This document shows positions 13,222 through 23,308 of a stretch of DNA of 64,000 nucleotides, in pieces. The stretch's first letter is position 1. Each line of letters opens with the position of its first letter. The DNA comes from Candidatus Vogelbacteria bacterium (GTDB taxonomy: Bacteria > Patescibacteriota > Minisyncoccia > Phycocordibacterales > XYD1-FULL-46-19), in the NCBI GenBank assembly GCA_903864935.1, contig CAIPHT010000006.1:101198-165197 (forward strand), written 5' to 3'. The translations under genes and the position numbers were made by a program. The notes under the pieces were generated by a model, which searched no databases, had not been told where the DNA came from, and saw only the letters and a program-made list of their open reading frames with translations.

Positions 13222-13274
13222 CACACCAAAGCTATTTCCCTTCATACCAACAAACTCCAGTTTGTAAGGATGTT
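13222..13274. repeat. direct repeat, copy 1 (acaccaaagctatt..tcataccaacaaactccagtttgtaaggatgtt; contains 16-bp palindrome ACAAACTCCAGTTTGT)
   Basis: Near-identical to 13612-13663, 13853-13887 and 14432-14467. Confidence 0.8.
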
Positions 13275-13312: not shown

Positions 13313-13618
13313 TTATGGTAGCGAGCGGAAGGTTTTGAGAAAATCGGCAAAGACTTTGCCGTAGGGCGAGAGCTCGTGCAGGACAAATTTGCCCTGATAT
13401 TTCTTATTGATTAGACCAGCGATATTGAGTCGTCTTGCGTGCTCCCCAATCGTCTTCTCATTAGCCTTAATTAGCTCAATAATCTCCTCCAGCGTTATCC
13501 GCGGATGGGACGCAACGGCAAGAAGAATCTCAATTCGATAGTGATTGGCGAGGCCTTTCAGATGGCGCTCCATTTGCTTGGACGTTTTTAATTTGCTCAT
13601 GACAATATTATACACCAA
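13313..13618 (-). CDS. ArsR/SmtB-family winged-helix transcriptional regulator
   Basis: HYRIEILLAVASHPRITLEEIIELI..EHARRLNIAGLI (HTH); 101 aa. Confidence 0.75.
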   Translation of the reverse strand: MVYNIVMSKLKTSKQMERHLKGLANHYRIEILLAVASHPRITLEEIIELIKANEKTIGEHARRLNIAGLINKKYQGKFVLHELSPYGKVFADFLKTFRSLP

Positions 13619-13663
13619 AGCTATTCCCTCTCATACCAACAAACTCCAGTTTGTAAGGATGTT
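13612..13663. promoter_or_regulatory. direct repeat, copy 2, immediately upstream of the arsR-like start; candidate operator/promoter (tataat 6 nt before the ATG on minus)
   Basis: Palindrome ACAAACTCCAGTTTGT. On the minus strand the order is ...ttacaaactggagtttgttggtatgagagggaatagctttggtgTATAATattgtcATG. Confidence 0.5.
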
Positions 13664-13852
13664 AATTAAGTTGAAAAAAAAGAAGGCCCCGCGAAGACCG
13701 GAGTGTCTTCGCGGGGCGGCACTAACTGCCGTTACAGCAGTGCGCAACAGTCCTGAGCGTGTAACGCTTCATGACGAGGGCTCCTCATGGTTAATCCTCT
13801 CCTCTATTATCATTATAGCATAGTCGTCAAGCCCTCCCTCAAAGACGATCCT

Positions 13853-13887
13853 TCTCATACCAACAAACTCCAGTTTGTAAGGATGTT
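13853..13887. repeat. direct repeat, copy 3
   Basis: tctcataccaacaaactccagtttgtaaggatgtt, followed by a partial echo gaggatgttta. Confidence 0.75.
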
Positions 13888-14410: not shown

Positions 14411-14431
14411 GAGATTATTTTACCTCAGTCT

Positions 14432-14467
14432 CCTCATCCCAACAAACTCCAGTTTGTAAGGATGTTT
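14432..14467. promoter_or_regulatory. direct repeat, copy 4, upstream of the C39-like gene
   Basis: cctcatcccaacaaactccagtttgtaaggatgttt. Confidence 0.5.
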
Positions 14468-14531: not shown

Positions 14532-15230
14532 TTAGCTTACTATTTTTTTCTTAATGTCTTGAGTTAGAGTTTCAGGAGCATAAGAATAACTTACCGGGAC
14601 ACGCAGAATCGGAAGGCAGGCTTCCCTAAGAGATTTCTCAATATTCTCGTCACGTTCCACTCTATCGCTTCGTTGGTGTGAGCGATCGTCAAGTTCGATA
14701 ACAAGGACAGGTTTCAGATTTGTTTTTTCGCAAATAACAAAGTCCATCTCTCGTGATTTGATAGTATTTCTTAAGCCATAACGATTTTCCGCTTCAAACT
14801 TCACGCCGATTAGTGCTTCTAGTCTGACTTTAGATTGAATAACCCAGTTATTATCTACCGCAATTTTTTCTAAAACTTGATAAAAATTACTTTCTGCTTT
14901 TGAGAGAAACTCCTTTTTGTAAAAATTCGGCTCCTGATTTTCAACGACAACAGGCACAGGTTCTTCATTTGAGATAGTAAGATTAGAAATCTCAGACCTT
15001 CTTTTGTTAAAACTTAGCAAAGAAATTAAACCGTCCAAACCTCTTTTGGCAATAACAATAGGTATAACCAGTGTGACAAATATAGCGGCAAGAGAAAAGA
15101 TTACAATCAAACCATTCTTCGCCCCAAAAAGCCAAAGAATACTCCCAAAAATTAAAATAGTTATAATGGCTCCCGTTTGGTCAATTTTGACAGTTCCCCC
15201 TCGAGGATAGCGTCGATAATATCTTCTCAT
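14532..15230 (-). CDS. membrane-anchored DUF2726-like (PD-(D/E)xK-type) protein
   Basis: Two N-terminal TM helices, then FYQVLEKI...REMDFVICEKTNLKPVLVIELDDRSHQ..D, typical of DUF2726 nuclease-like domains. Confidence 0.55.
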   Translation of the reverse strand: MRRYYRRYPRGGTVKIDQTGAIITILIFGSILWLFGAKNGLIVIFSLAAIFVTLVIPIVIAKRGLDGLISLLSFNKRRSEISNLTISNEEPVPVVVENQEPNFYKKEFLSKAESNFYQVLEKIAVDNNWVIQSKVRLEALIGVKFEAENRYGLRNTIKSREMDFVICEKTNLKPVLVIELDDRSHQRSDRVERDENIEKSLREACLPILRVPVSYSYAPETLTQDIKKKIVS

Positions 15231-15271
15231 ATGTTTATTTTACCTCTTATGATAAGAATTGCCACTCCCCC

Positions 15272-15307
15272 GAAGTCGTACTTCAAGTGAGCCCGAAGTC
15301 CGACTTC
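15272..15307. repeat. GC-rich palindromic element, type B (gaagtcgtacttcaagtgagcccgaagtccgacttc)
   Basis: Same architecture as the copy inside eno (62427-62462): gaagtNNNacttc-aagtgagccc-gaagtNNNacttc. Confidence 0.75.
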
Positions 15308-15371
15308 TTAGGTTTCAGTTATTATGACACATTTTACCCTTGAGACGAGGTCCGACCTCGTTTCTCCTCAA

Positions 15372-15383
15372 GGGGGGGGGGGG
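15372..15383. repeat. homopolymeric G12 tract followed by tgaagttggacctcgcc
   Basis: 12 consecutive G, directly 3' of the stop of gene 15401..16084 (minus). A similar G10+tgaatttcaacctcacc sits at 19888-19915. Confidence 0.8.
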
Positions 15384-15400
15384 TGAAGTTGGACCTCGCC

Positions 15401-16084
15401 TTATTTATCCCCCATTTTCTTGCTATCTAACCAATTTTTATAAATGACATCAATTTCTTTATTTTGCTCTTGGGTAAGATCATTAACAAATCCCCCTTCT
15501 TTAGGCATCTCATCAATAGTTAGCGCTTGTTTAACATAATCAAACAATAAGCGTCTTTTAGCTTCGGGGTCACATAAATTTATTCCTTCATAAGCTAACA
15601 TAGAAATTCTTCCGTGGGCTAAGTCATTTCTTATTTCCTTTACTTTTCTCAAAAACTTAGTGTGTTCACTTTTCCCACACAATTTTTCTACTATATCTAT
15701 CCGATCATTAAAATATATTTTCCCTTGATCATAATCTGGGTGGTCAGGATCTACTTTTTCAAAAGAAATACCGTGATATTTTTTTATGAAATCCAAAAGT
15801 TCGACCGGGGTCTTCCCAAGAGCTTCCTCCATATTTTTAAAAGATACCTTAAGAATATTATCTAAATCTCTCTCTACCGCGTGACAAAACCAAAAAGCAA
15901 ATTGCACAGTAAGAATTTCTTCACTAGATAGCCCCATCATTGTTTGGGGAATAAATAGATTAAAATCAATTGCCTCAAACTTAGACAACCTATCCTTAAT
16001 GTTATCGAAATCATGTTTATTCACAATACTAATTTTAGTCTGATTCAAGAAATATTCGGGTAAAATTACTGGCATTTCTTTCAT
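15401..16084 (-). CDS. HEPN-domain protein (Abi-like)
   Basis: R-x4-H motif EIRNDLAHGR near the C-terminus, all-alpha; 227 aa. Overlaps the upstream gene by 50 nt. Confidence 0.5.
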   Translation of the reverse strand: MKEMPVILPEYFLNQTKISIVNKHDFDNIKDRLSKFEAIDFNLFIPQTMMGLSSEEILTVQFAFWFCHAVERDLDNILKVSFKNMEEALGKTPVELLDFIKKYHGISFEKVDPDHPDYDQGKIYFNDRIDIVEKLCGKSEHTKFLRKVKEIRNDLAHGRISMLAYEGINLCDPEAKRRLLFDYVKQALTIDEMPKEGGFVNDLTQEQNKEIDVIYKNWLDSKKMGDK

Positions 16085-17042
16085 CTTTTGGAAATAACAA
16101 GAAGGTGTTCATCTTCTCTTTTGTAAATTCAAAATTAATTTCATGGGGAAAAACATAATCAGCACCAAAGGAAATATACATATAAGCCCCTTCGGTTAGG
16201 TCTTTTTTAGACAAACTTAATTCTATCAAAAAAGGATTTATTATTTGTTGCGGGCCCAATTTGTGTTTGTCAGTGATGAGATTTAAGCCAAAACCAAACA
16301 TATTCCAACCAGTAAAAAGGCCTATTTGGGATGTTTTTTCTAAGGTAGAATTAATCCCCCCGGAAGTATAATTTATCCAAATGTCTCTTAAGACGCCATT
16401 TCCTTTATTTTGTATAACTAAACCGAAGCGACAAATAATTTTCTCCTCGTCCTCAAAATAGCTATCACCTTGGCTAACAGACCACCAGTAAATTAGCTCG
16501 GAAAGCCTTTGTCGATTATAAAGGCTAGAGATTATATCATGACTAGCAACAACAAAATCAGAACCAGACCTAACATAATATTTGCCCGGAATATCTTTTA
16601 TCTTTAGAGAGGGATTTACTTGAACTGGTGAGAAATAATATTTAGGTATTTCAGTGATTACATAACCATCCCCATTTTCATTTTTTATAGAAAAAGAATT
16701 AACTTCTTGCAAGATTGGCAATGATAATTTAGAGACCGCATTATTTAGTAAACCGACAAAATTATCGGGGTTTTTGACTGGATTTTTACAAAAAGTATTA
16801 TCCCCGTTATCTGTAATACCCCAAACAATTAAGCCTCCAGAAGTATTAGAGAAGCCAGATATTGCTTTGGCCAGATTTTTACGATCACTTTCACTCAAAA
16901 CCATTGATTTTTCTGAAATAGAGATATTTTTATAATCAATATAAAAATTTTCTTGATCACCTAAAATTAAAAGATTATCTATCGCTAAAACGCCCCTTGA
17001 TTTAAAACTTTCTAGCTCATTTTTGTAAGATTTAGATTCCAC
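16035..17042 (-). CDS. AlbA_2 (Schlafen-like) domain protein
   Basis: N-terminal ESKSYKNELESFKSRG...LAKAISGFSNTSGGLIVWGITDNG matches the AlbA_2/Schlafen core; 335 aa. Confidence 0.55.
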   Translation of the reverse strand: MESKSYKNELESFKSRGVLAIDNLLILGDQENFYIDYKNISISEKSMVLSESDRKNLAKAISGFSNTSGGLIVWGITDNGDNTFCKNPVKNPDNFVGLLNNAVSKLSLPILQEVNSFSIKNENGDGYVITEIPKYYFSPVQVNPSLKIKDIPGKYYVRSGSDFVVASHDIISSLYNRQRLSELIYWWSVSQGDSYFEDEEKIICRFGLVIQNKGNGVLRDIWINYTSGGINSTLEKTSQIGLFTGWNMFGFGLNLITDKHKLGPQQIINPFLIELSLSKKDLTEGAYMYISFGADYVFPHEINFEFTKEKMNTFLLFPKDERNASNFTRIFLESD

Positions 17043-17066: not shown

Positions 17067-19382
17067 TTAATCTTCTTCAACCACCTCCTGGACAATACCC
17101 TGAACGCTGTCACCTTCCTCGGGAATTATCGGAGAATGTTTTTTGTTTGAGCTTTTTGGTAAGAGAACTCTGCGACCATCTTTTTTATCATAAAATTTTA
17201 TAGTCACATTTTCTCCCCCTAATAACGCGACCACTCTGTCTCCTGTCTCAGCCTTTAACTGCTGGCGGCACAAGACGAGATCTTCATCTCTAATCCCGGC
17301 AAGATCCATAGAATCTCCCTCCGCACGCAAAATGAAATAGTTGTAGCCAGGTTTAATCTTACTTTTCTCAACTTTAATATATTCTTCGATGTTTTCTTCC
17401 CCTAGCAAAGGGCTGCCACAAGGGGCAGAACCGACCAAGGGGACAAGAACAAATTCTTTAATATAAGGAGACGGAATCTTTTCTTTCGTGACGAAAATAT
17501 TCTCTTCTGAAACAGGGGCGCTTGTGAGACTGTCCTTGAAATATTTTTCAGTCTCTTTGTCAGTAAAATAAACATAGCAGCCCTTCATCCCACGAGTCAT
17601 AAGAGTTCGATAAGTATTCTTAATTATCGCTTCGGCTTTTCTACTGGCTTCTTCTGGATTTTGAGCAAAAGCTTTTTTATACCCCTTTAAAGAAGCGTCA
17701 GTTTTTGCTCGTTTACTAGGGTTAGCAATTATTTTCCCATTTCTTGCGACAAGGTCGTCCCCAATAATTACCCCAACATAGTCAACTTCCAAACCTTGGC
17801 AAGTATGGATACAGCCAACTTCTCCAACTGACTCAGGAGCCATGATCCACAAGTTACCGTCGCTCGCTAGATTCCACTGCATCCCAAAATTATGCCCAGG
17901 AATACAAATATCCTTTAAGCCCTTATTTTTCTTACTTACCCAATCCCAACAATAACCAGCAACGATACGAGCTTTATTGTTTATCTTATTTTTTTCAAAC
18001 AACAAATCCCGTAACTCATTTGGAGAATCAACTATCCTAAAATCATAATTTATGCCGTCCAAAGTTGTATTTGCCGTCTCGTTAATCTGAAGAATATTAT
18101 CAAGCCAAGATAAATAGCCATCAGAACCGTTACAACGAAATTGTGACTCTAATTTAAGATTATAGACCTTAACACCAAGTCTATCTGCCCATTTTTCTAT
18201 TTCTTCTTTTTTGCCGATATCATGCCAAGTGACCTTCTGATCCTCGTCTATAAAGAAAATCGAGCACTTAGAGGATTCGATAATTTCCTTAATTTGGTTT
18301 TCACCAAGATTCTTGAACATACCCGATTTAGCGTTAAGCCGATGGGCTTCATCAACAATAAGGGTATCAAAAATATTTTTATCAGAACTCACAAAAGATC
18401 CTGATCCAGTAAAAAGATTCGATATCTCGGTCTTTTTGAGAGTCTCGGCAAGCTTAGCCTCAAAGACTCCGCGGGGCGCTGCGTTCTTTGTAACATATTG
18501 TGTGTTTAGACCAAGTTTAGTAATCGCCACCAGAAGATTAATGGCAACAACAGACTTGCCAGTACCAGGGCCACCCTCAACAATTAAAATATTTTTGTTT
18601 GCCTTAGAAGATTTTTTAGTCAAAGATAGAGCTGTTTCATAAACGAGTTTTTGCTCGTCTATCATCACAAATTCCTCATTCCCCTTCAACATTGAAGAGA
18701 GGCTGTCTGCAAGGTTTTTCGAAGGCCTAATTTCGCCGTGGTCAATACGGTAAAGAGTATTTTTACCTTCTCCGTATTTAACAAACTTTGCAATAAAATC
18801 TTGGAGTTTTTCTTTATCTCCCTTACAAAAAGCTGGGGCCTTCTCTAGATAATCATTATAAAAAGGACTCAAAATAACGCCTTCGTCCACATGATTATGT
18901 AAATAGGCACAAGGCTCAAGGCCAATATTTTCCTCATAAACGGTAGCGTTAAATCCATAAAGAAGAGTAGAGTAAGACCAAGCCTGGTAAGAAGGATGGA
19001 GTTCTTCGCTTGGACCATTTTTAAAACGAGTAAGGACTACAGCATCTTTGTCTGTTTTGTTAATATCCGTCCACTGCTTTAATTCAATTATAATAACTTT
19101 TTCTCGCCTTTCTTCGTCTTCTCCGGTAATGATAAAGTCAATTCTATTTTTTGTCCTTGGTATAGAATATTCAATAGCAACGCCAGAGTCATCTGGGATT
19201 TTGCTCGTCTGCATAACTTTATACATAGCGTCGCCCAGAGAATTTTTCCAAGAGTTATACTCACTACTTCCAACCTTGATATCAATATGAAGTTTCTCCT
19301 TTACTCTAGCCCTAACAATATCCTCTATACCATTAGAAGCGTCTTCTAAGAAACCGAGTTTCGTAGACTGGTAGACAATCAT
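17067..19382 (-). CDS. multidomain protein: PD-(D/E)xK-like N-terminal region + DUF2075-type P-loop ATPase/helicase + C-terminal LexA/UmuD-like S24 peptidase domain
   Basis: RIDFIITGEDEE..VIIIELKQW (D..E.K nuclease-like). Walker A LIVEGGPGTGKS, Walker B LIVDEAHRL, CIHTCQGLEVDYVGVIIG (DUF2075/UvrD-like C-terminus). Then VPLVGSAPCGSPLLG linker and ILRAEGDSMDLAGIRDEDLVLC...VVALLGGENVTIKFY (Ser/Lys dyad of S24). Confidence 0.7.
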   Translation of the reverse strand: MIVYQSTKLGFLEDASNGIEDIVRARVKEKLHIDIKVGSSEYNSWKNSLGDAMYKVMQTSKIPDDSGVAIEYSIPRTKNRIDFIITGEDEERREKVIIIELKQWTDINKTDKDAVVLTRFKNGPSEELHPSYQAWSYSTLLYGFNATVYEENIGLEPCAYLHNHVDEGVILSPFYNDYLEKAPAFCKGDKEKLQDFIAKFVKYGEGKNTLYRIDHGEIRPSKNLADSLSSMLKGNEEFVMIDEQKLVYETALSLTKKSSKANKNILIVEGGPGTGKSVVAINLLVAITKLGLNTQYVTKNAAPRGVFEAKLAETLKKTEISNLFTGSGSFVSSDKNIFDTLIVDEAHRLNAKSGMFKNLGENQIKEIIESSKCSIFFIDEDQKVTWHDIGKKEEIEKWADRLGVKVYNLKLESQFRCNGSDGYLSWLDNILQINETANTTLDGINYDFRIVDSPNELRDLLFEKNKINNKARIVAGYCWDWVSKKNKGLKDICIPGHNFGMQWNLASDGNLWIMAPESVGEVGCIHTCQGLEVDYVGVIIGDDLVARNGKIIANPSKRAKTDASLKGYKKAFAQNPEEASRKAEAIIKNTYRTLMTRGMKGCYVYFTDKETEKYFKDSLTSAPVSEENIFVTKEKIPSPYIKEFVLVPLVGSAPCGSPLLGEENIEEYIKVEKSKIKPGYNYFILRAEGDSMDLAGIRDEDLVLCRQQLKAETGDRVVALLGGENVTIKFYDKKDGRRVLLPKSSNKKHSPIIPEEGDSVQGIVQEVVEED

Positions 19383-19726
19383 AACTTATTGTACTTGGTA
19401 TGCTTCCCCTTTGCTTTTTCGACTGGATATTTTGCCTCATTTTTAGAAACTTTCTTTTCTTCGGCTTTCAAGATATCAATTCCTAGATCATGAGACATTA
19501 TGAGCAGGTAATTTAGAACGTCGGCCAACTCGTCAGCAATTTCGTCTTTGTTTGTTTTAACATATTCTTGAATCTCCTTTTCGCTTTTCCATTGAAAATG
19601 CTCCAGGACCTCTGTGGCCTCAAGAGTTAAGGAAATAGCTAAGTCTTTAGGATTATGAAATTGCTTCCAATCCCTAGCATCACGAAAAGCAATTATTCTC
19701 TTTGTTAGGCTCTTAATATCTGTCAT
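19379..19726 (-). CDS. MazG-like nucleoside triphosphate pyrophosphohydrolase (all-alpha NTP-PPase)
   Basis: EATEVLEHFQW...EIADELADVLNYLLIMSHDLGIDI...KNEAKYP. Its stop overlaps the ATG of the downstream 771-aa gene (ATGA). Confidence 0.7.
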   Translation of the reverse strand: MTDIKSLTKRIIAFRDARDWKQFHNPKDLAISLTLEATEVLEHFQWKSEKEIQEYVKTNKDEIADELADVLNYLLIMSHDLGIDILKAEEKKVSKNEAKYPVEKAKGKHTKYNKL

Positions 19727-19797: not shown

Positions 19798-19886
19798 CCT
19801 AAACCGGGCAAGTATTCTTCCCTAGAGCCGTATACAGGCCACACCAACTAAAGATTGCTTCGAAGAGGCAGAAGCCGGAGAAGAAT
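19798..19886. repeat. ~90-bp direct repeat, copy 1 (left boundary of the Fic cassette)
   Basis: cctaaaccgggcaagtattctt...gccgtatacag...cttcgaagaggcagaagccggagaagaata; about 85% identical to 21451-21540. Confidence 0.8.
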
Positions 19887-19887
19887 A

Positions 19888-20196: not shown

Positions 20197-21378
20197 CTAC
20201 TTCTTTCGTTTAGCTTCTCTATTAAATGACTCGTCAAAGATTGCGTAATAATCAGCATAAATATACTTTTGGGCATATTCGGCATCACCAAGAGGCTCGA
20301 GAATTTTTAGTTTCTCAAGACGTTCGATTACTTTATAAGCCCCTGGTGCCGTAAAGCCGGTCCATTTCATAATCTCAGCGATACCGACAATTGGCTGGCC
20401 AAACAATTTGCGGACAATCTCCAAGGTAGATTCTGCAGATTTTTTACCAAGCTTTTGCATCTTGGCAAAATCACGATCGCGCAAACTGGTAATTTGAGTG
20501 CAAGCCTCAATACTTGAGCTAGCAATCTCGGCGACTCCCTCAAGAAAAAATTCTAGCCAAGCATTAATATCAGAATCTTCATCATGGTAGCCCTGTAATT
20601 TTTGGTAATAAAGCTTTTGATATTTTTTGAAATAACTAGAGAGGTACAAAACTGGTAATTCCAAAATTTTTGCATAGTGAATATACATGGCAATCATCAT
20701 TCGACCAGTACGGCCATTACCATCGGTAAAAGGGTGAATTGTCTCGAATTGAGCGTGGATAAGACCAGCCTTAACAAGAGAGGGATAATCGTCCTCAGCA
20801 TGAATAAACTTCTCAAGATCATCTAGGGATTTCTGCATATCAATAACGGTCGGAGGGACAAAAGAGGCATCAGCAGGAGTTTTGCCTCCAATCCAATTTT
20901 GTGAACGACGAAACTCACCCGGATAGGCATGTTGAGTGCACCGAGCGCCCGTCATTAGTCTCCCATGAAGCTCTCTGATAAATCTGAGAGAAATCGGAAA
21001 CTCTTTTGTTCGTTCGATACCATAATTGACAGCCTTAACGTAGTGTTCAATGTCATCAACATCACGATTGTTGCGGTCCTTTTCTTCGGTGACAGGAGCC
21101 GCCACCGCATCCTGAAGAGTAGCCCTTGTTCCCTCGATTTGACTAGAATAAGCAGCATCTTTCACAATAAACATGGAGATAAAAAAGTCTTTGTCAGGCA
21201 AAAGACGCGTAATGCCATCAAGTTTACCAACCAGACGAATAGCCTCTTCGTGCTTTTTGTAGAGTTTGGGAGTAATTACAAAACCCTCTTTCGGAGGAAA
21301 TGCGAAAGGAGTAAAGGCATTAAAACCTTCTTTTTGTTTAACATAACGGCCAATTTTTGGTTTGTTTACATTACCCAT
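20197..21378 (-). CDS. fic: Fic family protein (AMPylation/filamentation domain)
   Basis: Canonical Fic motif HPFTDGNGRTGR; 393 aa with a C-terminal wHTH-like region. Confidence 0.85.
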   Translation of the reverse strand: MGNVNKPKIGRYVKQKEGFNAFTPFAFPPKEGFVITPKLYKKHEEAIRLVGKLDGITRLLPDKDFFISMFIVKDAAYSSQIEGTRATLQDAVAAPVTEEKDRNNRDVDDIEHYVKAVNYGIERTKEFPISLRFIRELHGRLMTGARCTQHAYPGEFRRSQNWIGGKTPADASFVPPTVIDMQKSLDDLEKFIHAEDDYPSLVKAGLIHAQFETIHPFTDGNGRTGRMMIAMYIHYAKILELPVLYLSSYFKKYQKLYYQKLQGYHDEDSDINAWLEFFLEGVAEIASSSIEACTQITSLRDRDFAKMQKLGKKSAESTLEIVRKLFGQPIVGIAEIMKWTGFTAPGAYKVIERLEKLKILEPLGDAEYAQKYIYADYYAIFDESFNREAKRKK

Positions 21379-21450: not shown

Positions 21451-21540
21451 CCTAAACCGGGCAAGTATTCTTACTCAACGCCGTATACAGCCCGCACCAG
21501 CTGAAGATCGCTTCGAAGAGGCAGAAGCCGGAGAAGAATA
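21451..21540. repeat. ~90-bp direct repeat, copy 2 (right boundary; encodes the C-terminus of gene 21452..22303)
   Basis: Identical blocks of 22, 11 and 30 nt shared with 19798-19886. Confidence 0.8.
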
Positions 21541-22303
21541 AGATTAAGGGATTCCAAGTGGTGAGTATCGCAAAGAAGAAGAGGGCGACGGCTAGGGCCA
21601 AACGAATTAGCCGATCTCTCTTGCCAATATTTTGGGAGCGGCCTCGGACCGAGCGCTCGGCAAAGAATTTGGCCAAGAAGCGATAAGCGAAGCCGACAAT
21701 AAAGGCGAGGGTAAACATTAACAAAATTAAGCCCCAACCGAAGGGTGAATAGATAAAATTGGCCGGAGACTTACCAAAGAAGTCTCGCTTGAGTTGTGGC
21801 AAAACTTTATAAACATTCACCGTCTCGGCAAAAGAGAAACTCTCAATCTCGCCAACCGCCAAAGCATACTTACCTTTGTTCAGAGGGCTAGTAACGATAA
21901 CTTCATAATCTCCCGCTGGAGCTTGAGACTTATACTCTGGGCCGCGCCAATAATCATCATAGCCAAACTCTTCATGATACTTCTCCCAATTAGAATTTTG
22001 TCCGCCTAAGACGGCCAATTGTTCCCCATCGCGAGAAACAGTCGCCGAGATATCCCGCGGGGGGAGTGCCCCGGTGCCCGCCCTTTGATATGGCAACAAG
22101 ATATTAACATAGAGGGCAAAAGGTTTGTCTGAATGAATTTTATAAATCACCGGCTCCCCCGCCAGTTGCCCATAATAGGCCTTGGAGACCTCGGGGTCAC
22201 TAACAATAATCGGATTGCCGGCGGCGAGGCGGGGTTGATGGGCAAGGGCGAGGATGGGAATCCCTAAAATAATAAGGAGGATGGTGAGGAGGTATTTTTT
22301 CAT
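21452..22303 (-). CDS. hypothetical exported/membrane protein
   Basis: Signal peptide MKKYLLTILLIILGIPILALA, C-terminal TM helices; 283 aa. Confidence 0.55.
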   Translation of the reverse strand: MKKYLLTILLIILGIPILALAHQPRLAAGNPIIVSDPEVSKAYYGQLAGEPVIYKIHSDKPFALYVNILLPYQRAGTGALPPRDISATVSRDGEQLAVLGGQNSNWEKYHEEFGYDDYWRGPEYKSQAPAGDYEVIVTSPLNKGKYALAVGEIESFSFAETVNVYKVLPQLKRDFFGKSPANFIYSPFGWGLILLMFTLAFIVGFAYRFLAKFFAERSVRGRSQNIGKRDRLIRLALAVALFFFAILTTWNPLILFFSGFCLFEAIFSWCGLYTALSKNTCPV

Positions 22304-22351: not shown

Positions 22352-23308
22352 TTAGATCAGATTAAGAATTAATTTAATAACTTTTTCTTTATCCTTTGGG
22401 TCGCTGCTCGCGACAAGAATGGTTAAGGTGGTAAGAGCCGTTGGGGTAAGTTTCTTGGTATCCAAAATTTTGGCCTGCTCAAGAAACCAGACAAAGGCAA
22501 AAGCCCCGCTTCGTTTATTGCCATCGGCGAAGGGATGATTCTTAACCATAAAGTACAGCAAGTGAGCCGCCTTCTCTTCAACAGCGGGGTAGAGTTCTTT
22601 GCCGGCAAAAGACTGCATCACGTTACCGACAATACCTGCGACAGACCCCGTCTCGCGTTCTCGTCCAAACAACTCGGTGGCCTCCTTTTTGCGCGTTAAC
22701 TCATCTTTCAATCCAAACAAACTCTTAGTGATTTTGTCAGTCGTGAGCTCAACCTTCTTCTTGGTCAATTTGCCCTTAGGCAGAGCGTCTCGGTCATAAG
22801 CATCAAGTGACAACCAAGTGTCCGCAAAAAGTGAGACGAGCTCGGCCACGCCAAGGGCTCCGACGTCGCTACCAGCCGGGAGAAGTTTCTTCATATCCTC
22901 AACCACACCCAAGAACTGGGCATAATTATGTTTAATCACCTTAGGATTAATAGTGAAACCCTTGGTGATGTGCTCACGGAGAGTCTTGGTGGCCCATTGG
23001 CGGAATTGGATAGCTCTTGCTGAATTAGTTTTGTAACCAACAGACAAAATAACATCCAGATTATAAAACTGTACTTGGTAAACTTTCCCATCATCGGCAG
23101 TATGTGCAAATTTTGCACAAACTGAATTTTTGTCTAATTCTTTATCTTTTAGAATATTTCTAATGTGCTTAGTAATAACAGAACGTTCAACACCAAACAC
23201 CTCCGCAATCTGCGCCTGGGTTGCCCAAATTGTCTCAGCCTTATAATCACCCTTGAGCTCAATGGCTCCGGACTTGGCTTGGTAGATTATTAAATTTTTC
23301 TTTTTCAT
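22352..23308 (-). CDS. RhuM-like N-terminal domain fused to Fic/Doc family domain
   Basis: N-terminal IELKGDYKAETIWATQAQIAEVFGVERSVITKHIRNI (RhuM-like); C-terminal HPFADGNKRSGAFAFVWFL (Doc-type HxFx(D/N)GNKR). Confidence 0.75.
   Translation of the reverse strand: MKKKNLIIYQAKSGAIELKGDYKAETIWATQAQIAEVFGVERSVITKHIRNILKDKELDKNSVCAKFAHTADDGKVYQVQFYNLDVILSVGYKTNSARAIQFRQWATKTLREHITKGFTINPKVIKHNYAQFLGVVEDMKKLLPAGSDVGALGVAELVSLFADTWLSLDAYDRDALPKGKLTKKKVELTTDKITKSLFGLKDELTRKKEATELFGRERETGSVAGIVGNVMQSFAGKELYPAVEEKAAHLLYFMVKNHPFADGNKRSGAFAFVWFLEQAKILDTKKLTPTALTTLTILVASSDPKDKEKVIKLILNLI

Follow-up and report, generated by a model that had tools for sequence, protein, structure and literature searches.

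Adjacent Schlafen and HEPN-like genes in a Patescibacteria defence-like island: one abortive-infection module or two independent genes?

When two defence-type genes lie end to end on one strand, do they act as a single system, or have they merely come to share an island? The question is raised by a stretch of 64,000 nt from a Candidatus Vogelbacteria bacterium (contig CAIPHT010000006.1, positions 101,198 to 165,197; hereafter the window), where a gene for a prokaryotic Schlafen protein with an AlbA_2 domain is closely followed by a gene for a small HEPN-like protein. The original prediction, made from the letters of the sequence, took the two for a candidate two-gene abortive-infection module. 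Both open reading frames (ORFs) exist as it described them, starting with GTG and ATG, respectively:

16035..17042, minus strand: prokaryotic Schlafen (pSlfn) gene, 335 aa, GTG start (ORF, Pfam SLFN_AlbA_2, family alignment, AlphaFold2)
15401..16084, minus strand: HEPN-like protein, longest ORF, 227 aa, ATG start (ORF list; the true coding sequence is likely shorter)

We favor, with moderate confidence, a different answer: these are two independent, horizontally mobile, single-protein abortive-infection RNase genes that are stacked in one island and probably co-transcribed, but are not interdependent. The evidence that carries this answer is the makeup of each protein and the distribution of the two families in other genomes.

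The Schlafen protein and its predicted sensor

The pSlfn gene encodes the following parts:

16518..16961, minus strand: Schlafen/AlbA_2 nuclease domain, about residues 28–175 (profile and Foldseek matches)
16929..16952, minus strand: predicted catalytic motif ENFYIDYK, E31-x4-D36-x-K38 (translation, conservation, spacing)
16125..16505, minus strand: C-terminal Ig-like beta-sandwich, about residues 180–306, putative sensor (model, Foldseek)

The AlbA_2 domain named by the original prediction is confirmed by Pfam SLFN_AlbA_2, which matches residues 45–162 with 38.7 bits against a cut-off of 25.3 (E 1.7e-9). In an alignment of 32 family sequences, whose members share the start position, E31 and K38 are invariant and D36 is conserved in at least 90%. 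The spacing of E-x4-D-x-K is the same as that of the triad E17/D22/K24 in the bacterial protein CbCash, where mutation of the triad abolishes tRNA cleavage, and Ex4(E/D)xK is the consensus across 5,930 prokaryotic Schlafens. The profile built from the 32 sequences matches the structures of Schlafen 8, 12, 14 and 5 as well as that of CbCash. In the AlphaFold2 model, which has a predicted local distance difference test score (pLDDT) of 87, the N-terminal half forms an alpha/beta domain, for which Foldseek returned the rSAMD9 tRNase domain (probability 1.0, TM-target 0.42–0.46) and SLFN14. Looked up by its exact sequence, the protein gave no record.

Nine strands predicted between about residues 180 and 306 of the same model form a beta-sandwich. 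Foldseek matched this C-terminal half to TTHA1873, to carbohydrate-binding modules, to the receptor-binding domain of alpha-macroglobulin and to the ectodomains of integrins alphaV, alphaIIb and alphaX. Identity of the N-terminal versus the C-terminal domain is 74/60% for the closest homologue, then 59/47%, and 36/16% for distant ones, so that divergence is faster in the C-terminal domain than in the nuclease domain. The C-terminal half is thus most likely the protein's own sensor. Because the AlbA_2 protein holds a complete catalytic motif in addition to its own predicted Ig-like sensor domain, it appears to be an effector in its own right. The role first assigned to it, that of a sensor or antitoxin for the HEPN protein, is not upheld by this arrangement.

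The HEPN-like protein

The second protein is recognized by its motif:

15608..15637, minus strand: EIRNDLAHGR, HEPN-type R-x4-H motif (R152, N153, H157, R159; translation, conservation)

This motif had been pointed out in the original prediction, and it stood up to comparison with relatives. A word-indexed search found 7 of these and a profile search 20, and an exhaustive profile search of 1.84 billion proteins gave 132 representative clusters. All 19 close homologues have R152, R159 and E71, and at least 90% of them keep N153 and H157; across 96 distant family members, RNxxxH never varies in its R or H and hardly ever in its N. Complete members are nearly all 130–240 aa in length, with shorter matches resembling fragments, and no recurrent fusion partner was seen in the 132 clusters. 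Pfam, NCBIfam and PADLOC do not hold this family as a curated one, and no member was found in viral contigs.

Could the 227-aa protein be something other than a functional HEPN RNase, with an R-x4-H that is fortuitous or degenerate, or with a role outside defence, leaving the Schlafen as the sole defence gene? Searches against curated models and structures speak for this alternative. None of the HEPN models in Pfam reaches its gathering cut-off on the protein; HEPN_Apea scores 17.8 bits where 24.4 are required. Foldseek with the AlphaFold2 model (pLDDT 82) found nothing significant in the PDB, the top match being the HEPN protein Csm6 at E 0.72, and no match in BFVD. Sequence-profile searches of the PDB with HEPN profiles gave either chance matches (MEK1) or a non-significant match to HepS, which is the best PDB sequence match of the broader family profile (E 0.21 over 47 residues, aligned as F..KI...l..lN.iRN..aH). 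In addition, some homologues lie among housekeeping genes (L001, L005, L101). Against the alternative stands the invariance of R and H, and near-invariance of N, in the 96 divergent members. Moreover, the weak matches are time and again to HEPN families and to no others, and the part matched is always the motif region. HEPN_Apea is matched below threshold by 17 of the 19 close members (best 7.7e-6) and by 9 of the 96 distant ones. Further sub-threshold matches are to RiboL-PSP, Cthe_2314, MAE_28990, Abi_2, the C-terminus of Cas13 (PADLOC) and Csm6 (NCBIfam), and those that are localized cover the motif-bearing region at about residues 99–170. Many homologues also adjoin genes of a mobile, defence or toxin–antitoxin kind, such as those for DUF4238-Pers, PDC-S13, YafQ, SocA_Panacea, recombinases or a type ISP restriction–modification (R-M) enzyme. 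We consider it unlikely that the protein is no HEPN RNase. The model is almost entirely alpha-helical, with one small hairpin past the motif, in agreement with the all-alpha protein originally proposed. As to the HEPN fold itself, motif and profile evidence favor it, although Foldseek gave no significant match; on these grounds of sequence, the 227-aa protein is likely a HEPN protein.

The start of this gene bears on how the two genes meet. An overlap of 50 nt, as originally reported, exists for the longest ORF, which begins at the first ATG (16084), but is doubtful for the gene itself. The public gene call (P0001, an identical protein) starts at the second ATG and has 224 aa, which reduces the overlap to 41 nt. 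The N-termini of 17 of 18 true homologues align to residues 18–28 of the 227-aa ORF, and residues 1–18 have a pLDDT below 50. Finally, an in-frame GTG at 16024, 10 nt past the upstream stop codon, would give a product of 207 aa, a length typical of the family. The likelier candidates are:

15401-16024, minus strand: HEPN-like coding sequence from GTG, 207 aa
15401-16075, minus strand: HEPN-like coding sequence from ATG, 224 aa

Ribosome-binding sites leave the choice of start codon undecided, most genes of the window being without a Shine-Dalgarno sequence. Several of them have a TATAAT-like box immediately 5' of the ATG (for example, at 23308, 10479 and 11898), and the two features together suggest that leaderless mRNAs are frequent in this organism. 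The 50-nt overlap is thus probably an artefact of ORF calling. Whichever start applies, the pSlfn and HEPN-like genes are tightly packed.

Pairing, neighbouring genes and the island

If the two genes formed a module, their families should be met together elsewhere. Hidden Markov models (HMMs) of both families were run over the six-frame ORFs of 112 fetched loci, of which 17 contained the HEPN family and 90 the Schlafen family. Where 1 kb or more of upstream sequence is present, the HEPN loci amount to nine distinct contexts. None of the 112 loci holds both families; in the window, which served as a positive control, these HMMs picked up the two genes. The homologues derive from Patescibacteria metagenome bins (Amesbacteria, Paceibacterota, Saccharibacteria). 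Next to the HEPN homologues are a DUF4238-Pers gene, a Bro-N/PDC-S13 gene, a DUF7674 gene with an ISL3 transposase, a YafQ toxin–antitoxin pair, SocA_Panacea, serine recombinases, the type ISP R-M enzyme and the housekeeping genes mentioned above. All-against-all BLAST of the flanking proteins revealed no partner shared across these contexts. The same comparison of the neighbours of Schlafen homologues also found no shared partner; in 76 distinct Schlafen loci, the one recurrent theme is that of scattered R-M genes and transposases. We therefore do not uphold the two-gene AlbA_2–HEPN module, given 0 of 112 loci with both families and no conserved neighbour for either. The original prediction had itself named absence of the pair from other genomes as a result that would refute it, and within this sample the pair was never met besides the window. 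We regard this negative as strong but not exhaustive. The DUF4238 gene named among the neighbours, a PADLOC DUF4238-Pers candidate, is in a Saccharibacteria genome (L015, 5145-6624), where the HEPN homologue overlaps it by 8 nt.

Where the Schlafen relatives do have a characteristic setting, it is of another kind. The closest homologues of pSlfn (59–67% identity; L019–L022) belong to type I R-M operons, where hsdM and hsdS flank them at a distance or overlap of 4–11 nt and stop and start codons overlap. By analogy, this slot is a PrrC-like position for a putative Schlafen nuclease. An R-M-like cluster in L011 (2443-8008) encodes a helix-turn-helix protein, an N6_N4 methyltransferase, a 234-aa AlbA_2 protein, a 250-aa unknown protein, a DEAD/ResIII helicase, a 266-aa unknown protein and then a 335-aa Schlafen homologue, and so contains two different Schlafen-domain genes. 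In L009 the Schlafen homologue adjoins an HpaII R-M system and a serine recombinase, and in L007 and L008 it lies among ribosomal-protein or housekeeping genes. The association of pSlfn relatives with R-M genes fits the published cluster 4 of Weickert, which comprises R-M-associated Schlafens with an unknown C-terminal domain. In the window itself, tblastn with HsdM, HsdS and HsdR found no R-M genes in the 64 kb.

How, then, does an obligate two-gene abortive-infection or toxin–antitoxin module fare, in which the HEPN protein is an RNase toxin and the AlbA_2 protein its sensor or neutralizing partner? HEPN toxins often have partners. The two genes are juxtaposed or overlapping on one strand of a defence island, at most 10 nt apart if they do not overlap, with no terminator-like site found between them. 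Schlafen–HEPN fusions are on record in the MAE_18760 HEPN family, and two loci hold a HEPN-type gene 150–180 nt downstream of a distant Schlafen homologue: in L091 a Hypoth_Ymh gene (3e-39), and in L053 a gene whose product weakly resembles RiboL-PSP and has two RNxxxH motifs. These adjacencies, however, concern other HEPN families and wide gaps. They emerged from a search of the neighbours with the expression R[ND]x3-5H, which is non-specific (about 9 chance matches expected, by a hand estimate from typical residue frequencies), and Pfam bore out the candidate in L091, weakly that in L053 and no others. HEPN domains are among the commonest in defence islands. For this reason, and because the gaps are large, we read L091 and L053 as co-residence in an island, not as a conserved module. 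The other evidence against the obligate pair comes from several sides: the families do not co-occur and the HEPN members stand beside unrelated genes, the AlbA_2 protein keeps its full catalytic triad and a sensor-like domain of its own, its closest relatives are inside type I R-M operons without a HEPN gene, and the overlap is probably artefactual. We judge an obligate pair to be very unlikely. Coupled expression of the two genes is another matter, and is likely because they lie on the same strand with a gap of at most 10 nt or an overlap and no terminator between; from this tight packing they are probably carried on one transcript.

Two independent genes would still have to be told apart from a larger unit. 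Upstream, the block continues as follows:

17067..19382, minus strand: DUF2075/Schlafen-group-3-type helicase, 771 aa, with C-terminal LexA-like S24 peptidase domain (Pfam 1.5e-104 and 1.2e-20; NCBIfam lexA 2e-22)
19379..19726, minus strand: MazG-like nucleotide pyrophosphohydrolase (Pfam 8e-19; 4-nt overlap with the helicase gene)
15378..15400, minus strand: direct repeat GGYGAGGTYnAAnTTCACCCCCC, copy 1, immediately past the HEPN stop codon
19891..19913, minus strand: the same direct repeat, copy 2, upstream of the MazG-like gene

The helicase gene ends 24 nt upstream of the pSlfn gene. The N-terminus of its product has a PD-(D/E)xK-like motif (IDFII...IIIELKQW), and its S24 domain, of the LexA/UmuD type, has a GDSM serine motif and, at VPLVGSAPCGSPLL, the context of a LexA-like cleavage site. 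The four genes might thus be one system of MazG-like protein, DUF2075 nuclease–helicase–S24 protein, pSlfn and HEPN, as a 'split' counterpart of the group-III Schlafens, whose helicase and nuclease are joined in one protein; the self-cleaving helicase/S24 protein would sense phage DNA or RecA–ssDNA filaments and unleash the two downstream RNases. Consistent with such a system, the genes follow one another on the same strand (4-nt overlap, 24-nt gap, gap of at most 10 nt) with no internal terminator, and the helicase matches the Pfam family 'Schlafen group 3 helicase' at 1.5e-104. The bracketing direct repeat of 23–26 nt has only two copies in the 64 kb and none in 100 shuffles. In published work, the tRNase activity of SLFN11 is activated by binding of ssDNA to its helicase domain. 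The distribution of the components argues otherwise. Homologues of DUF2075, MazG, S24 and DUF2726 were not found in the 90 Schlafen or the 17 HEPN loci. DUF2075 homologues with 53–58% identity are on unrelated plasmids of Bacteroidota, Halomonas and archaea, where they lack the S24 domain and are accompanied by neither pSlfn nor HEPN genes; elsewhere, the DUF2075 helicase is a separate module. A MazG-like gene adjoins the DUF2075 homologue in 2 of 5 loci (L106, 3390-4004; L109, 6509-6838), and these two may form a conserved two-gene module of their own. GC content also differs between the segments (0.32–0.39), and each component family is mobile alone: because the families occur apart in other loci, we regard every gene of the block as independently mobile. 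A single four-gene system is quite unlikely. Were it true, it would offer a prokaryotic model of a Schlafen helicase controlling a Schlafen nuclease, which the evidence does not favor; a DNA-damage-responsive, self-cleaving nuclease–helicase would in any case be unusual. The direct repeat may mark the limits of a cassette, or else be an element resembling a terminator that both sites share.

Several of these observations count against two independent genes and temper our confidence: the tight packing of pSlfn and HEPN-like genes on one strand, the adjacencies in L091 and L053, the recorded Schlafen–HEPN fusions, and a repeat whose two copies bracket exactly the MazG/DUF2075-S24/pSlfn/HEPN block and hint at joint mobility. 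To these are added the lack of a curated HEPN model above cut-off and of a significant structural match for the HEPN-like protein. Schlafen contigs, furthermore, are often short, with at least 650 nt downstream in 45 of the 76 loci, which limits the co-occurrence negative.

With these points weighed, we retain two independent RNase genes as our reading, for which a mechanism can be proposed. The analysis itself shows the domains, motifs and predicted folds, the size of the families, the varied company of genes around them and the island setting; RNase activity, substrates, triggers and oligomeric state are drawn by analogy from RorSlfn5, CbCash, HepS and ApeA. As in RorSlfn5, binding of a phage protein or other phage component to its Ig-like domain would release pSlfn from a latent state; once activated, it would oligomerize and cut tRNA through an E31/D36/K38–Mg2+ site, halting translation. 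The HEPN-like protein, like HepS and ApeA, would rest in an inactive homo-oligomeric state, which a phage protein or small molecule might rearrange in such a way that paired R152/H157 motifs form the active site, and the active protein would cut tRNA or other RNA. In this respect the original prediction is supported: both products are plausible abortive-infection RNases in a defence island.

The surroundings also agree with the island setting that was first proposed, both in their defence-type genes and in their lowered GC content (0.32–0.39 across the island, about 0.45 in the remaining window). The same-strand (minus) run consists of genes for the MazG-like protein, the DUF2075/S24 helicase, the AlbA_2 protein and the HEPN-like protein, then a 170-nt structured spacer and the DUF2726 gene (14532-15230). 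On the DUF2075/SLFN-g3 helicase, PADLOC gave weak Nhi, AbiO and PDC-S41 matches. Further features of the island are:

15231..15400, minus strand: structured intergenic region past the HEPN stop codon, two strong hairpins (RNA fold -59.7 kcal/mol, z -3.5)
20197-21378, minus strand: SoFic (PADLOC 9e-104)
22352-23308, minus strand: RhuM/Fic-domain protein

The SoFic and RhuM/Fic genes stretch the defence/toxin island to about 23.3 kb. The transcription unit probably ends in the region 15231..15400; having no U-tract, this is no canonical intrinsic terminator. A search of Rfam with 13.0–21.5 kb of the window, which includes this region, gave no match. Short related motifs, GTCGGACYTCG, are clustered within it, between the HEPN and DUF2726 genes. 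Two other sets of repeats were seen in the vicinity. A direct repeat of 90 nt, 89% identical between its copies (19798-19887 and 21451-21540), flanks a cassette of SoFic and orf90; one copy is the 3' end of a YgaP-like gene (21452-22303), the layout to be expected after a site-specific insertion with duplication of the target gene's end. The palindrome ACAAACTCCAGTTTGT is part of a 48-nt intergenic repeat that occurs four times (13227-13274, 13616-13663, 13840-13887 and 14419-14466) around genes for an ArsR-like regulator and a C39 peptidase, where the copies are possible operator sites.

Comparison with known systems

Both genes are divergent new members of kinds of system that were characterized in 2026. 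Organisms like the Patescibacteria, which have small genomes and few described defences, would thus carry the Schlafen–Ig and the solo-HEPN type stacked in one island. The analysis also delimits an uncurated HEPN family, with about 130 representative clusters, and places one Schlafen subfamily in the slot between hsdM and hsdS, which is worth recording.

For pSlfn, the nearest described architecture is that of pSlfn5/RorSlfn5, where one gene encodes a bacterial Schlafen nuclease together with an Ig-like sensor and the sensors diverge faster than the nuclease (Perez Taboada et al., Nat Microbiol 2026, PMC13056530). The window protein likewise has an N-terminal Slfn nuclease domain with Ex4(E/D)xK and a C-terminal beta-sandwich resembling integrin ectodomains, its sensor domain is the faster to diverge, and it is a single-gene unit in a defence island; this likeness is drawn from the published description of the architecture. 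Unlike RorSlfn5, its host is Patescibacteria-like and not one of the Enterobacterales, and its nearest relatives are embedded in type I R-M operons, which differs from RorSlfn5 as described. With CbCash, the pSlfn family shares a weak profile match (E 0.0026) and the identical spacing of the E-D-K triad, and the position of its closest homologues between hsdM and hsdS is a further likeness. Unlike CbCash, the window protein has no Csx15/CARF-like domain, no CRISPR context and no R-M gene nearby. Anticodon nucleases of the PrrC/RloC type are HEPN domains fused to an ABC-ATPase and are embedded in type I R-M operons. Close homologues of pSlfn occupy the same kind of slot, which by analogy points to a latent RNase that the R-M enzyme guards or that serves it as a backup; the window protein differs in its Schlafen nuclease fold and in having no R-M operon around it.

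The HEPN-like protein resembles HEPN-MNT and other HEPN toxin–antitoxin pairs in being an R-x4-H protein in a mobile or defence context, but differs from HEPN-MNT in that neither a nucleotidyltransferase nor any other conserved partner was seen beside any member examined. A toxin–antitoxin reading with AlbA_2 as the antitoxin was rejected, as the catalytic triad of the AlbA_2 protein is intact and the protein is met on its own in other places. Closer in kind is HepS or 'HEPN solo', an anticodon nuclease that acts in abortive infection and is encoded by prophage Gifsy-1 (Nature 2026, PMC13043305; PDB 9oij). Like HepS, the window protein is solitary and of a single domain, about 200–210 aa, with an RN-x3-H motif and no partner gene. 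HepS is the best PDB match of the family profile, yet that match is not significant and sequence homology to HepS was not detected; unlike HepS of Gifsy-1, the family shows no sign of a prophage location. ApeA is a single-gene HEPN anticodon nuclease (bioRxiv 10.64898/2026.01.26.701840) that carries the beta-rich ApeA-NTD1 of about 300 aa before its HEPN domain (PMC3710099). Membership of ApeA was rejected for a helical protein of 207–227 aa without ApeA-NTD1 and with a HEPN_Apea score below the cut-off. HEPN_Apea is nonetheless the most frequent weak Pfam match among the close members, and both proteins would be stand-alone defence RNases. By this analogy of organization and putative activity, HepS and ApeA appear as the closest functional analogues of the HEPN-like protein.

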